Shown here in pieces: positions 42,418 to 52,974 of a stretch of 64,000 nt of DNA. This DNA comes from Chiloscyllium plagiosum. Its lineage: Eukaryota. The notes under the pieces were generated by a model, which saw nothing but the letters and a program-made list of their open reading frames with translations, did not search any database and was not told the DNA's origin. The DNA lies in NCBI RefSeq assembly GCF_004010195.1, contig NC_057718.1, forward strand, positions 57,303,023-57,367,022, in the 5' to 3' direction. Numbering within the stretch: position 1 is the stretch's first letter; the number at the start of each line of letters is the position of its first letter. The position numbers were made by a program, and so were the translations under genes.

Positions 42418-42721
42418 ATGAAATATATTAATAAGACAGTAAAAGACTTCATGAGGATGCAGATAGATAAATGACAGCTTTGGTTCAGCAACAGAGTTGT
42501 CATCTTGGAACCAGAAGCCTGTACATGAGTTCTAGGATGATATTTCAATTCAGATCTGAGGAAGTATTTTGCTGCCGGACAAGATAGTATACTGATATCT
42601 CAAAGGCATATAAAATATTGCATGTCATTCTTTGAAAAGCAACAAGGATGTTTTCTTCAGTCACATAATTAATATTTATCCCTGAATCATAATCACTCCA
42701 TACCCCTGGTGTTAAAGCTCA

Positions 42722-44833
42722 TTGTTGTTGTGGTTCTGTTCGCCGAGCTAGGAATTTGTGTTGCAGACGTTTTGTCTCCTGTCTCGGTGACATCCTCAGT
42801 ACTTGGGAGCCTCCTGTGAAGCGCTTCTGTGATGTTTCCTCTGGCATTTGTAGTGGTTTGTCTCTTATAAATGCCAGAGGAAACATCACAGAAGCGCTTC
42901 ACAGGAGGCTCCCAAGCACTGAGGATGTCACCTAGACAGGGGACGAAACGTCTGCAACACAAATTCCCAGCTCGGTGAACAGAACCACAATGAGCACCCG
43001 AGCTACAAATCTTCTCACAAACTTTGAAGACCTATGGACAAGAGACGCTAAGACAAGCCAGGAAATGGGAATCCTGTGCCAACCGCCTAAGCGCCACATA
43101 CGAACAACTTCGGTTCCTGCACGAATGCAGAAAGAATCGAATCCTTCCACCATGTGTCAGATACAGACCACCAGTCAGCAACCCACAAGCCAGAGAGACA
43201 GCCAGACACAACAGGTTCAGGATGACCCAGGTAATGATTACAAACGCACACACCAGACTACACAAATACAGACAAGAAATTGCGCGCCAAAAGTCGTTAA
43301 TTTCAAAAACCACAAATCAATCAAGAATGGACCCGGGCCATAGAACAGGCTGTCACCATAGGACAGACCAGGACCACACACTGGAAAAAAACGGCACTAA
43401 AAGAAAAAAATGGCCAAACTAACACACAACAGAGAGGACACCACAACTCATACCTGGGTTAGAAACCTCTCCCACAGACAGCTCACAGACACAGAAGGAA
43501 CAATACTGGCCAAGGGACTCAACTATAACCACAGGGATGCCAAGACAGCAGACTTCCAAGCAGCACTAGAATGCACACTCAAACAATGGACTGACAGAAG
43601 AGACACAACAAATAGTGAGACAAAGTATCGTACCCCTGATAACAAGGAAAAGACAAACACAATCTCAATACCAAGGAGAGGGAAGCACTAAAAACACTAA
43701 GAAATAAGAACATAATCATACTACCAGCAAAGGCAGAATGACGGTCATCCTGGACAAAGCAGAGTACATCGAGAAAGCACAACAACTACTTGAAGATACC
43801 AACACCTACCAAAAGAGAGAGTTTGACCCCACCCCACAGCTCACCAATAGGATAAACAACACACTGAGGAACCTGCAAAAAAAAAACGGACAGAAAACCA
43901 GGTTTGACCTACAGAGAATGAAACCTGAAAGCAACACCACCCCCAGATTCTATGGACTACCTAAAGTGAACAAACCAGACATCCCACTCAGACCCATCGT
44001 ATCGCTACCAGGGACATCATCACACAAACTTGCTAAAGACCTATAACAGAAACTGAAACACCTGATCAGCGGATCCAGACACTCTATACAGACAACACTG
44101 GAATTCTTGGACATCAGAAATATACATTAGACAAGGAAGAAACTATGGTCTCATTCGATGTAACGGCACTGTTCACCTCTATCGACAAAACCCTAGCCAG
44201 AGAAACAATAGCCAACCTGCTGGACGTACAGAACAGACAAGACGGGGAACCTATCAACAAAGCCTGCATACTCAAACTACTGGACCTGTGCCTCACAACA
44301 CACTTTACATTCAACAACCAAATATATGAACAAATCAACGGCACACCCATGGGCTCACCCATCTCTGGACTCATAGCAGAAGCTGTAATGCAAAGATTAG
44401 AACAAACAGTCTTACCGCAAATTCAACCCAAACTCTGGGTCAGATATATAGATGATACCTTTGTAATAATTAAAAACACAAATAGAAAACACACACCGGA
44501 TCATCAAGCCACACTCACAGGAATCCGATTCACTAGAGAAGAAGAAAAGGACAACCAACTCCCATTCCTAGACGTGATGGTACAGAGAACACCGAACGGA
44601 GAATTCACCACAAAGGTATACAGGAAAGCCACACACACACACACAGACCAAGTCCTGAACAACAAACCACTATAAATGTCAGAGGAAACATCACAGAAGT
44701 GCTTCACAGGAGGCTCCCAAGCACTGAGGATGTCACCTAGACAGGGGACAAAACGTCTGCAACACAAATTCCCAGCTCGACGAACAGAATCACAACGAGC
44801 ACCTGAGCTACAAATCTTCTCACAAACTTTGAA
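42722..44833 (+). mobile_element. Penelope/Poseidon-type PLE: inverted pLTR, pLTR, frameshifted RT ORF, pLTR; endonuclease deleted
   Basis: PRFYGLPKVNKPDIPLRPIVS; SFDVTALFTSI; GTPMGSPISG; WVRYIDDTF; LPFLDV; pLTRs at about 42865-43028 and 44663-44833, inverted copy 42722-42860. Confidence 0.93.
42916..42955 (+). ncRNA. Minimal type I hammerhead ribozyme, family B, intact core
   Basis: GCA CUGAGGA U GUC-A-CCU AGAC AGG-G-GAC GAAAC GUC/UGC. Confidence 0.82.
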
Positions 44834-44917
44834 GCTCATTGTTGTTTGTGGGACTACATTTTTAGCACATTAGCTGCTGTTTTTCCCCACATTGCAACAA
44901 TGGCTATCCAAAGTTAA

Positions 44918-45072
44918 AAAAATCAGACAACACTAGGTTATAGTCCAACAGGTTTAATTGGAAGCACTAGGTTTTGGAGCACCACTCCTTCATCAGGTGG
45001 TTGTGGAGTACACAATTGTAAGGCACAGAATTTATAGCAAAGATTTACAGTGTGATGCAACTGAAATTATTG
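44918..45072 (-). mobile_element. PLE-like terminal repeat, family C, with inactive hammerhead at 44965-44999
   Basis: Homologous to 48145-48295; CAC CUGAUGA A GGAG..CUCC AAAA CC UA GUG. Confidence 0.7.
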
Positions 45073-46305
45073 AACTCCAAATCATGACTACATTGGCTAT
45101 GGTAGCTTCGGGGTAATTTGTGAAAACTGCAAAAATTCTTAATTCTTTCCTGTGCTTAACTTAATGTGCAAAACTTTGATGGAACGTACGCTGAGAGAAA
45201 AGATATTTTGAGAGAGCATGCAGTGAAAATATGCTGAAAAGTGTTGAAAAATTGGGGTAGCATTTATTGGAGAGTCTATGAGACGCCAGTATCACATTCT
45301 TCAGGGAAGGTCCACTGAATTAAGTGCCACTTTACTAGACAGTGGTGGAGTTTCTCTGGGAGCAAGGATCTGGGGCAGACAATCCACTTAAGAAATGCAC
45401 TTAACTAATAAGCCATTGAATGCGTGGGAAGACAGTGACTTCTACAGGTACAATGCCCATCTGAGGACTGGTATTATTGCTGGATCCTGAGTATGGTGAC
45501 GTTTGGAGAGGTATGATGGAGGGAAGAAAAATATGATGTCTCTCAGCAAATCACTCTTTCTGATGCTGGGTCCACTGATTAAGTACTGAATATTTTTGGA
45601 GGGGGGATTCCCTGCTCTCAACCTCCTCTAAAATCTAGTAAACAACCTTACAAGAGATTGCCAATTGTACTCCCCAGACAGTAAACCCTCCATTGTAACA
45701 GATGCAGAGCGGGAAGGCATTAATACATACAGAATGCATAGTATAGTTAAGTTGCTATAAAGAAAAACGTTTAAAATTTATATTAGAAACACTGAGCCCA
45801 AGAACTTGGAATACAAGTAAAAGCAAAATACAATGAATGCTGGATCTGTGAAATAAAAATATAAAATGTTGGAGAAACTTAGTAGGCCTGGCAACATCTG
45901 TATAAAGAAAAACAAAGTTAAATGTTTCAAGTCCAATGGCTTGACTTCAAAGATGATTTATTTTAGATGTGGCCAGGCTTGCTCAGCTTCTCCAGCATTA
46001 CATGTATTTCAATAAAATAGAAAATGTTTTGATCACAGCTAAATCACTGTTCAATTTTGAGTATCTTACAGAAATGACATTGGAGCTATAGAAAGCATAC
46101 AATGTAGATTAACAAACATTATGTCAACAAAAAGAAACTAAGACCTGAGATCTGAGAAATTTAAATGATTTGCTTTGAAGTAGAGAAACTAAAATAAAAA
46201 TTAGACATTTTCAAAATTCGGAGCTTTGATAGAGCAGATAGGTTAAAACATTCTTCGACACGGAGCAATCTATTTAATGAATAATGGAACAATTGTTTCA
46301 TTTAC

Positions 46306-46377
46306 CTGTAAAGCTGTTATTCCTTTGCTTGTACCTGCCATCTTAAAGTCCATATCTCCATTATAATCCTCAATACC
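46306..46377 (-). CDS. PNPT1: PNPT1 exon 20 equivalent (catalytic aspartates)
   Basis: 72 nt, [28 protein letters not shown]. Confidence 0.97.
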
Positions 46378-46462
46378 CTGCAAGAGTAAACAGAATTACT
46401 TGTATCTAAGCACATTCAAAAATCCAAGTCAATGTGGCAACAGTTCTTGGTCAAAAACACAC

Positions 46463-46572
46463 CAAAATGTCAGTCAGGAGACGGTAATCTTCGATTTCAG
46501 CAGGCTTTTCTGGATTTTTCTTTGTAATGAGGCCAACAGCTACACCGGCCACAGGAGCAGAGATTGGAACAC
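46463..46572 (-). CDS. PNPT1: PNPT1 exon 19 equivalent
   Basis: 110 nt, (G)[36 protein letters not shown], cag|...|gtgtgt. Confidence 0.95.
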
Positions 46573-46754
46573 CTGATGGATATATAAAACACCACAAATA
46601 AAAATGTAAACTCTACTATAGTGGAAAACAAATGCTTTAAATCTCTAGTCTTTTGTATAATCTAGCTGCATTTACTGAAAACATTTCCAATGCTTTCTTA
46701 CATATATTTTGAATTAAAAAGATACTGGTGAAAGGACACATGATAAGAACTTAC

Positions 46755-46808
46755 CTGCATCCATCAAAGCCATAGTTCCTGCACAAACAGATGCCATAGA
46801 AGATGAAC
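46755..46808 (-). CDS. PNPT1: PNPT1 exon 18 equivalent (phosphate-binding SSSMAS)
   Basis: 54 nt, (G)SSSMASVCAGTMALMDA(G), AG/GT. Confidence 0.96.
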
Positions 46809-48139
46809 CTGTAAGTTAAAAATGAATAGAGAGTGATAAATTGCTATGAGACCAGAACATTGGACTTCCAATTTCAACTACAAACACCACAACCCTAAAA
46901 GGGTAATGTACTATGTATATTGAAAACCTGAAATAAATACAGAAAATGCTTGAAACATTCTCTCTGGAGTGTTAGTCGAGACAGAAGGCATCAACATTTC
47001 AAGTGAATAATCTTACAACAGAACTGTCAGCACTTATATAACAATTTTTAAAAGTACATATCGATATTTAAAAAGTTAATTTGTCATAGTCCAACCGATC
47101 CCCAGAACTGATCTTATCTGAAACAGCTGACTGGTGATGGTTTAATTGGAGGGTCACCATACCTCAGGCAAGGGTCAAGACTGAGGAAGAGACTCCCTCA
47201 TGGCAACCTTGTTGGTGTGGAAATTGAACCCACACTGTTATATCATTTTGCATCACAAACCAGCTGTCCAGTCAAATGAGCTGACACTCTTATTTATATT
47301 TACAGACTGAGAAAAACAGGAAATAAGAAACAGCTTGGATACTTTCTAGGCAGAAAGGGGCTTTAATTACATAATTTCAAGAAAAATAATGTCAATAATT
47401 TAAAAAAATGTAGTCGACTTACTGTATACAGAAAAGCAAAATACTTCTGAGAAAAAGACAGACAAGCTTTTAGAGACACAAGAGATGGGTTTATGACTCT
47501 AATGGTGGAAAACTTGGTTTTGGAAAAGACTAAGGGAACTTCTGTGCTGACGGTTGCCAAGCAACCTTTTCTGGACTTAAATTCTGTTTTCGCAGACCTA
47601 AATGGTCAGTAAGGACCATTAATCTTGTGAACATTCAATCACAAGATTAAAGTTGCTTGCTCTCCTTCTCTCAGCAAAAGTTCTTGGAAATCTGATAAAG
47701 TTCTCAAATGTCAATACAAGCCCTGAAAAGCTGAATTATGACCACTTGCCAAAAACACAGATCCAGCTTGACTTTAAACTCAAGTGAAGCTCTTCCAATG
47801 GTCTATGGATGTCAGGAATTCAACTTCATTGACAGCAAACTCCACAGATTGTGAGTAATCATCAAATGCTTCAGACTCAACAGTGGTGCTTTCCCTTTTG
47901 CTTTTTTAAAAACAAAATCTCTGCAGATTTGTGTTGTCTTTAGCATCACGTATGTTTGTTTTTGGATTCAAAGCAACACTCTAAATCTGGATTACAGCTT
48001 ACTTGTATATCAGTTTTTCCACTTGTTTTTAGAAATGGGTTTCAGTTTATAATGAACTAAATTTGAGTTTCCTACTAAAACATGATGAAAGTTTATTTTC
48101 TTCTGATTTTGATATGTTGGTTTTGGACTGGGGTGTACA

Positions 48140-48615
48140 AAGGTAAAAGTCACACAACACCTGGTTATAGTCCAACGGATTTATTTGGAAGCACTAGCTT
48201 TCGGAGTGCCGCTCCTTCATCAGGTGGTTGTGGAGTATAAGATCGTAAGACACAGAATTTATAGCAAAAGTTTACAGTGATGTAACTGAAATTCTATGTT
48301 GAAAAAGACCTGGATTATTTGTTAAATCTCTCATCTGTTAGAATGACCATGTTGGTTTCAGTTCTTGCATATGTAAATCACAAAACCTTTAAAGTTACAT
48401 TCTCAAGTGAACTTTAACAATTGGAGTCATGTCAGCCCAGATTAATGCATTGTAGGTGTGAGGTGCCCTGTGTGAGACTGTGTCACAATGGTCAGACTGA
48501 TTCTAAACTTTAAAAAAAAAACGGATTTACAGAATCTTACATAGATTCATGCAATTTTTGAGCAAGGTCAAATGTAATTCTGCAAGTACAAATTCACCCC
48601 ACAAACTTGTATGTT
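48140..48615 (-). mobile_element. PLE-like 3' region/terminal repeat, family C
   Basis: Ends (minus strand) hammerhead-gtgcttccaAATAAA..gttggactataaccaggtgttgtgtga; second copy at 44918-45072; no ORF evidence, so class is inferred. Confidence 0.65.
48192..48226 (-). ncRNA. Minimal type I hammerhead ribozyme, family C, intact core
   Basis: CAC CUGAUGA A GGAG CGGCA CUCC GAAAG CUA/GUG; palindromic AGCU stem III. Confidence 0.82.
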
Positions 48616-48701
48616 TAAGTGTAGGATAATTAAATAAAAAGATTTAAAATAAACAGATGTGCTGTTGTTTGAATTTATAGTCAATCCATTTAATAACTTA
48701 C

Positions 48702-48791
48702 CATTAGATTCTAATACTTCTGCAGTTACTCTTATTGTAAATGGAAATTCTTTAGGAACCACAGGTTTCAATGCTTTTTCTGCAAGAGCAC
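48702..48791 (-). CDS. PNPT1: PNPT1 exon 17 equivalent
   Basis: 90 nt, (G)[29 protein letters not shown](G), AG/GT. Confidence 0.96.
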
Positions 48792-51994: not shown

Positions 51995-52065
51995 CTTATA
52001 AGAGTGGTGATAAGATCTGTTTTTATACTTGATTCTATTGAATCAAAGGCTACTGTACAAAGAAC
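51995..52065 (-). CDS. PNPT1: PNPT1 exon 14 equivalent
   Basis: 71 nt, VLCTVAFDSIESSIKTDLITTLI(S), AG/GT. Confidence 0.94.
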
Positions 52066-52974
52066 CTAGAAAGAAAAGGTAAGTCATCAAGATTATGTTT
52101 GCAGTTCCTCAAATAAGAACTTGGAAGAAAAAAAATTCAGTTTCTTCTTTTCTCCCATCTCATGTTCTTCATTCCTATCCTGAAGTTCTCATTGGGATAC
52201 AGGGTTCAAGACGTGCTTTTGTTCTCTGCTAACTCACCAAAGGTAGCTTCATGTGAAAGCTTTGGCAGTTTAGTCCAGCGTTTTTATCTGAGAATGAGTC
52301 AAAGTCAATCCTGATACAATTATTTCCCCCCATGCATATCTGACTATGCATATGAACAGCAGGAATGGTTGAATAGCCATTAAAAGTATTATCTCAGGCT
52401 GACTATTCACCCAACATTTGGAGTTAATTTCAATAGGACTAATTCTCCAGTGGCCTCGTTGTTATCAGAACAAGTTGTGGAATTAACCGAGATGCCTGAT
52501 AGTCTTTGTGGTTTAACCAATCTAGATGAGCTCACTGACCCATCATAGTTCAAAGATGTCATGAATAAAAAGTCAATTTTCTACTTAAAATTAGATTGCT
52601 TGCACTAATTAGCCATGATATTGATTTGGGTAAATTATTAAGGCAACAAACCATTGGCAAAATGTTAATAAGTCTATTTTGTAACATTGCAGTTTGAACA
52701 GTAAGTATGATCTAATTCTATATATGGTTTACGCTCAATAATTCATAACTTTGACATCAAAAAATGCAACTTGTACGCAAATTCAAAAGGAACACATAAT
52801 GTAGCAATGTAGAAATATAGTGTTCAAAAAAATTCAAATTTCGGGTCACATCATGTAAAGTATTCTGAGGAAGAGTAGACCACATTAAAGCAAATCTTGA
52901 ATAGTTGGCATGCACATATTATTGAATCTGAAATTTTATCCTTGAGAAAATTCAAGTTAATTTAAATTTGTTAC

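Follow-up and report, generated by a model that had tools for sequence, protein, structure and literature searches.

The hammerhead ribozyme motif in intron 17 of PNPT1 very probably owes its presence to a mobile element: we suggest that it lies in the 5'-truncated end of a Penelope-like element (PLE), likely of the Neptune type, and that it is inert there, decays neutrally and is spliced out uncut with the intron. An earlier note on this DNA had put the motif forward as the best candidate in this stretch for a ribozyme acting within a host transcript. That proposal finds no support here, given the 15,303 intact copies in the genome, the absence of signs of selection on the core, the dead core of the nearest partner on the same strand and a share of at most 1 in 37 RNA reads over a diagnostic base that could come from this copy. 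The features under discussion, all located in the window (the whole stretch of 64,000 nt that was analysed), are collected in Table 1.

Table 1. Positions in the window of the host exons, the repeat copies and the elements of the motif and its poly(A) region
Feature	Position	Strand	Basis and remarks
PNPT1 exon 17 (human numbering), preceding the host intron	48702..48791	-	peptide match; splice joint present in an X2 contig
PNPT1 exon 18	46755..46808	-	next exon; host intron is 48701-46809
Minimal type I hammerhead, putative	48192..48226	-	sequence; stem I CAC/GUG, core, extra A, stem II of 4 bp
5'-truncated 3' end (3' UTR / pseudo-LTR) of a Penelope-like element	48104..48612	-	BLAST to sister loci
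Second, shorter family C copy, intron 20	44918..45068	-	85% identical over 151 nt; motif at 44999-44965
AAUAAA, canonical poly(A) signal	48180..48185	-	sequence; 9 nt past the predicted cut
Equivalent of the family poly(A) addition site, putative here	48165..48168	-	motif mapping to 44938-44941
GU-rich downstream strand	48150..48163	-	folding; predicted to pair with 48234-48221, masking stem I and C3-U4-G5

The motif and its host intron

The exon upstream of the motif encodes a PNPase-like peptide, its translation (48791-48702) matching human mitochondrial PNPase with an E value of 5e-10, and the motif is therefore sense to PNPT1. It lies 475 nt past the donor at 48701, in an intron of 1,893 nt, which agrees with the earlier placement in intron 17 about 480 nt past the donor. 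In the contig of run X2, which carries another organism label, exon 17 is joined to exon 18 as in normal splicing. Provided that the residues of the PDB construct are offset as assumed, the earlier numbering of the upstream exon as exon 17 fits the position of human E475. The assignment of human E475 to exon 17 is that given in the available part of a preprint (bioRxiv 10.1101/2024.10.03.616462). Over 46570-46753 and 52063-52973, run X13 contained intronic PNPT1 contigs (depth 8-31) as well as spliced exon joints (depth 114-238), a pattern that would reflect either RNA rich in pre-mRNA or DNA with PNPT1 retrocopies.

Read on the minus strand, the letters from 48226 to 48192 are CAC CUGAUGA A GGAG CGGCA CUCC GAA AGCU A GUG, and they contain the core CUGANGA ... 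GAAA ... UH in type I order, as in the minimal hammerheads (min-HHRs) of PLEs, with a predicted cut at 48195/48194, 3' of the CUA triplet. An unpaired extra A (48216) follows A9, G48215 and C48203 form the G10.1-C11.1 pair, and an AGCU palindrome at 48199-48196 takes the place of the stem III hairpin, so that the motif is without a self-contained helix III. The letters thus bear out the earlier description of an intact hammerhead with a stem I of 3 bp, a stem II of 4 bp and this cut site, and with it the expectation that stem III could form in a dimer only. The extra A and the palindromic stem III, which had been flagged as special, are defining traits of the published min-HHR class, and the extra A is kept in all 79 of the 79 family copies sampled. 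The stem II of 4 bp is correct for this copy but not for the family, most members of which have five pairs (the fifth being C-G in 34 of 45 copies); the fifth pair was lost here via a G>A change at 48207, an instance of CpG decay. An extended helix I, in which UCCACAAC would pair with GUUGGA, can be drawn by eye and was rejected, the folding model favouring other pairings.

That these letters match the hammerhead consensus by chance is a practically negligible possibility. It might seem favoured by an Rfam covariance-model scan of the window, which at E values up to 1 returned seven matches, zero of them hammerheads and none at the motif, and by a loose hammerhead pattern that is expected 6.5 times per window and was found 12 times. 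The strict 35-nt motif with a free loop of 5 nt, however, has 15,303 exact matches in the genome (7,730 forward and 7,573 reverse) as opposed to 0 for the reversed control pattern, and it was on this count that chance was excluded. All four extra traits of min-HHRs listed in the available text of PMC4209133 are present besides, and the motif holds a fixed position behind a PLE frame.

A Penelope-like repeat family and the decay of its cores

The repeat that carries the motif is about 510 nt long and begins at the end of a CA-rich tract that trails the open reading frame in longer copies; BLAST alignments to sister loci start between 48603 and 48620 and end near 48104. No target-site duplication of at least 7 nt was found around the insertion. 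A query of 171 nt gave 3,194 candidates, 40 of which were scored, and the 39 closest other copies among these are 89-93% identical over the 171 nt. The exact 35-mer of 48226-48192 occurs 102 times in the genome, and the 29-nt stretch just downstream of the motif has 37,520 exact matches. With a density of the strict motif of about 0.28 per 64 kb, roughly one in four windows of this size holds an equally intact copy, and the single locus matters little.

Upstream, longer sister copies show the CA-rich tract and then coding remnants. The search for a parent frame covered five stretches of 10 kb, four of which were uninformative; the one usable locus, L047, has an open frame of 598 aa with RT-like motifs, a CX4CxxC linker and GIY-YIG-like motifs (VYLIRC ... 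YIGET). This frame ends about 300 nt before a family motif with an intact core, which is the arrangement of a min-HHR in the pLTR of an element with RT and GIY-YIG domains. A Pfam scan of the frame and of four shorter pieces gave no RT or GIY-YIG match, and the PLE assignment therefore rests on the visible motifs, on the architecture and on an atlas that places the frame with RVT_1 / GIY-YIG / HTH_animal clusters at 0.96-0.97. The CX2-5CxxC linker between RT and C-terminal GIY-YIG that marks Neptune is present in L047 and is common to Nematis, the combination of RT, zinc linker and C-terminal GIY-YIG being that of Neptune and Nematis PLEs in the available text of PMC8557442. From this layout we infer that the window repeat is a 5'-truncated PLE end, probably of the Neptune type, which on sequence is the likely clade of the family. 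Two further observations concern its copies at large: many of those on G000:C1 lie in close head-to-head inverted pairs, a pattern described for PLE insertions, and loci L048-L137 split about evenly into two subfamilies that differ by a TG insertion behind the 3' strand of stem I, present in 38 and absent from 40 of 79 copies.

Within the window, family C has one further copy only, 3.2 kb off and three exons beyond the first, so that no tandem of the retrozyme kind is present. Its motif carries G12>A and AGCU>ACCU, as expected from the earlier mention of a core-mutant relative on the same strand at 44965-44999. This mutant copy lies about 50 nt past the end of a second PLE (42690-44870), which has an RT remnant at 44037-44672 (RVT_1, E 3e-10) and a hammerhead family of its own (42919 on the plus strand, 44724 on the plus strand with G12>A, and 42799 on the minus strand; inverted arm 42805-42913). 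Motifs of yet another group, family A, occur at 403, 785, 10770/10780, 12607, 13931, 24781, 25080 and 31701; they have the stem II GGGC/GCCC and the palindrome ACGU or variants of it, and several are in inverted pairs.

To follow the decay of the core, we took the first 100 listed matches to a flank pattern on contig C1; the copies were thus picked by a flank outside the ribozyme and the sample was chosen without regard to the ribozyme itself. Under a strict filter (45 of 102 copies kept, 57 dropped), essential non-CpG positions were changed in 18 of 450 cases (4.0%) and other motif positions in 34 of 808 (4.2%; p=1.0); under a looser filter (79 of 100 kept, 21 dropped), the corresponding counts came to 48 of 790 and 113 of 1,422 (p=0.12), the copies dropped before counting being truncated, rearranged or partly unreadable in both cases. 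The comparison was made within the motif because in the upstream flank, tried as a neutral control, differences between subfamilies and the edges of truncations act as confounders; as a decay control, the CpG at 48245/48244, also upstream, was likewise set aside, since it varies among subfamilies. The full core is retained in 41 of the 79 sampled copies. Catalytic positions decay as fast as the others, and there is no sign of core selection in the family.

A finer comparison is offered by the CpG that spans C11.1 and G12, at which the core-killing change G12>A was counted 3,037 times in the genome as against 3,699 times for the wobble-tolerated change C11.1>U, a deficit of 18% (p about 8e-16). 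It could reflect weak selection for intact cores and speaks mildly against strict neutrality; the surrounding sequence, or master elements that bear the wobble, could account for it equally well. At this locus, domestication as a conserved intronic ribozyme, in the manner of the intronic hammerheads recorded in amniotes (PMC6765202, in the part available), is extremely unlikely. The motif is intronic, sense and intact, as a domesticated ribozyme would be, but it has lost a stem II pair through CpG decay, its divergence from the nearest sisters (7-11%) is that of any other copy, and an intact core is common by default in the family, as the sampled copies attest.

Dimer geometry, masking and family transcripts

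In the parent element the motif would act as a double hammerhead via paired AGCU palindromes, and published work suggests that the PLE protein may assist it. With two palindromes paired, A15.1 of one strand would pair with U16.1 of the other, so that each core would close on the CUA/GUG of its partner; going by hammerhead anatomy and the drawn structure, each core is predicted to cut the partner strand and not its own. By this geometry a cut at 48194 would need a second RNA with an intact core, and the 44965 copy could not supply one, its core being dead. At best, the core at 48226-48192 could act on the 44968/44967 site of that copy via a stem III that contains a C-C mismatch (modelled at -5.7 kcal/mol), and only if both introns were still on one RNA.

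Folding bears on whether such a dimer would form at all. The bare 35-mer folds both stem I (probability 0.8) and stem II (0.96), but in five of five contexts of 101-601 nt the strand 48163-48150 covers stem I and C3-U4-G5 and the probability of stem I falls to 0.0. Freeing the core is predicted to cost 9.0 kcal/mol at 48226-48192 and 2.3-12.9 kcal/mol in 29 sisters, in an equilibrium nearest-neighbour model that ignores tertiary contacts and proteins. The earlier statement that nothing sequesters the motif is not borne out, in that the element's own downstream strand is predicted to mask the core; since this strand follows the motif by about 30 nt in transcription, there is a brief co-transcriptional interval. 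The masking stretch opens with TGGTGT in 85 of 102 sampled copies, and position 48162, an A here, is U in most sisters. In the PNPT1 pre-mRNA the window copy would accordingly find itself with no competent partner and shut by its own GU-rich strand.

It follows the same lines to ask whether the motif cuts the PNPT1 pre-mRNA at a meaningful rate in trans, together with a family transcript and perhaps aided by the PLE protein, which we consider very unlikely. In its favour, the motif has kept both its core and its palindrome, family copies with an intact core are expressed as RNA, host pre-mRNA is reduced by a fast intronic hammerhead of engineered origin (PMC12069562, in the part available), and on paper the double hammerhead, taken by itself, is stable at -11.1 kcal/mol. 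This value is nevertheless weaker than that of two free monomers (-13.0) or of a mispaired dimer (-21.2), and in context the active homodimer reaches -36.3 as against -56.6 kcal/mol for two free monomers, being some 20 kcal/mol less favourable. The predicted masking of the core, the lack of a core for 48194 in the 44965 copy and the low rates published for related hammerheads (PMC4209133 and PMC11167929, in the parts available) all point the same way.

RNA from the family was sought by aligning four of the 24 listed runs, one of which, the single-cell poly(A) run X17 (same species label; about 2% of the run), gave 169 reads; another, X18, yielded 0 reads and carries no weight either way. Of these, 122 have poly(T) loose ends at 44938 (83 reads), 44940 (8) or 44941 (31), which places the poly(A) site of the family 12-15 nt past AWUAAA and 27-30 nt past the predicted cut; genomic copies extend about 60 nt further, and this following sequence is GU-rich and not A-rich, which argues against internal priming. 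Among 100 sampled copies the hexamer is AAUAAA in 27 and AUUAAA in 73, the search pattern admitting these two alone. The predicted cut site is crossed by 42 loose-end reads, which carry the intact-core consensus, and by 30 joint reads; the polyadenylated reads over the intact site belong mostly to the TG-insertion subfamily. A joint from 44968 to 48211 (36 reads, 12 starts) apparently stems from a transcribed copy that is without the second half of the core, and 7 more reads are ambiguous. Among the read ends listed for X17 there was no pile-up at the cut site, in a library type that would lose the 30-nt product. Over the diagnostic base 48244, 36 of 37 reads differ from the window copy, so that at most one could derive from 48104-48612, and the depth over PNPT1 exons in this run is at most 0.3. 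The X17 reads show just that uncut, polyadenylated family RNA exists, and that it comes from other copies.

Since family transcripts end past the cut and many are uncut, an effect on the host through the AAUAAA at 48180-48185 is at least as plausible as one through cleavage. Even so, it is decidedly unlikely that the copy serves as an intronic poly(A) site, ending some transcripts in intron 17 and giving a truncated mRNA. A canonical signal sense to PNPT1 is there, and family transcripts are polyadenylated at the homologous positions 44938-44941, ahead of genomic sequence that is no A-rich tract. No poly(T) loose end at 48165-48168 was among those listed, however, at the PNPT1 depth just given; nearly all reads mismatch the window copy at 48244, folding predicts a paired state for the GU-rich tract, and the site is about 535 nt from a 5' splice site. 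U1 snRNP usually suppresses polyadenylation near a 5' splice site.

A broader reading would join the two effects. The stretch 48150-48163 is also placed like the GU-rich downstream element of a poly(A) site, and the end of the family might be a coupled switch, in which a dimer-only hammerhead stands just before a working poly(A) signal and one GU-rich strand is both downstream element and core clamp; in thousands of shark genes including PNPT1, some of the host pre-mRNAs would in that case be ended or cut by sense intronic copies. We regard this as very unlikely. If it were true that sense intronic copies cut or end host pre-mRNAs, they would impose a genome-wide load on shark gene expression. 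A narrow literature search found no statement of a poly(A) signal beside PLE hammerheads in the available parts of PMC6765202 or PMC2377424, and more on this point may be contained in the supplements to PMC4209133 and PMC8557442. Of wider interest are two observations on the family that bear on the function of PLE hammerheads in animals: its RNAs receive their poly(A) tail shortly beyond the cut site, in many cases without being cut, and the prediction for each core is that it acts on the partner strand and not on its own.

Comparison with known hammerheads and PLEs

The closest match among described systems is the min-HHRs carried by metazoan PLEs in their pLTRs and reported in the Xena, Poseidon and Neptune PLEs of fishes (PMC4209133, Cervera and De la Pena 2014; this and the other sources compared here were available in part). 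The shark motif shares with them the type I core, the base between 9 and 10.1, the G10.1-C11.1 pair, the loopless palindromic 15.2-16.2 and the short helix I, as well as an occurrence as thousands of dispersed single copies that stem from truncated PLEs (PMC4209133). Its helices are shorter than those of Schistosoma (helix I of 3 bp and helix II of 4-5 bp here, 4-5 and 7-8 bp there), and the copies of this one family outnumber the roughly 4,000 of coelacanth and 9,000 of Xenopus (PMC4209133). The main text of that paper, in the part available, names no sharks, which its supplementary alignments may include. Cleavage was not detectable for a single min-HHR and was slight for dimers (PMC4209133).

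The hammerhead of an anole PLE (PAc) was cut with the PLE protein only and was dispensable for insertion in vitro, and the account available reports zero RNA-seq reads ending at its cut site (PMC11167929, Frangieh et al. 2024). Like the shark family, this Anolis Poseidon PLE has a hammerhead in the pLTR, transcripts that appear uncut in RNA-seq, and a genomic end past the ribozyme in an AC-rich stretch. PAc, however, belongs to the Poseidon clade, its ORF begins inside the ribozyme, and its cleavage was obtained in vitro with protein (PMC11167929), whereas the shark parent has a linker, CX4CxxC, of the kind that typifies Neptune or Nematis, and its hammerhead is known here from sequence. The endonuclease-positive Neptune PLEs are similar in having RT, a CX2-5CxxC linker, a C-terminal GIY-YIG and a hammerhead near the 3' end (PMC8557442, Craig et al. 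2021). They also resemble the shark family in that sister copies commonly have partners that are inverted and 5'-truncated, and that target-site duplications are often not discernible (PMC8557442); the window copy (48104-48612) departs from this pattern as a lone direct end without an inverted partner.

Non-LTR retrozymes are likewise derived from PLEs, carry a type I hammerhead and occur in a chondrichthyan genome (bioRxiv 10.64898/2026.07.22.740005). They are defined as tandems of at least two consecutive hammerhead units, while the window copy is solo; in Xenopus they are under-represented in introns (bioRxiv 10.64898/2026.07.22.740005). With the intronic hammerheads of amniotes the motif shares its intronic position, and with the hammerhead in the 3' UTR of Clec2 a cut just ahead of a poly(A) signal (PMC6765202). 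Those hammerheads are conserved features of their host genes (PMC6765202), whereas the window copy is a member of a decaying repeat family with no stem III of its own.
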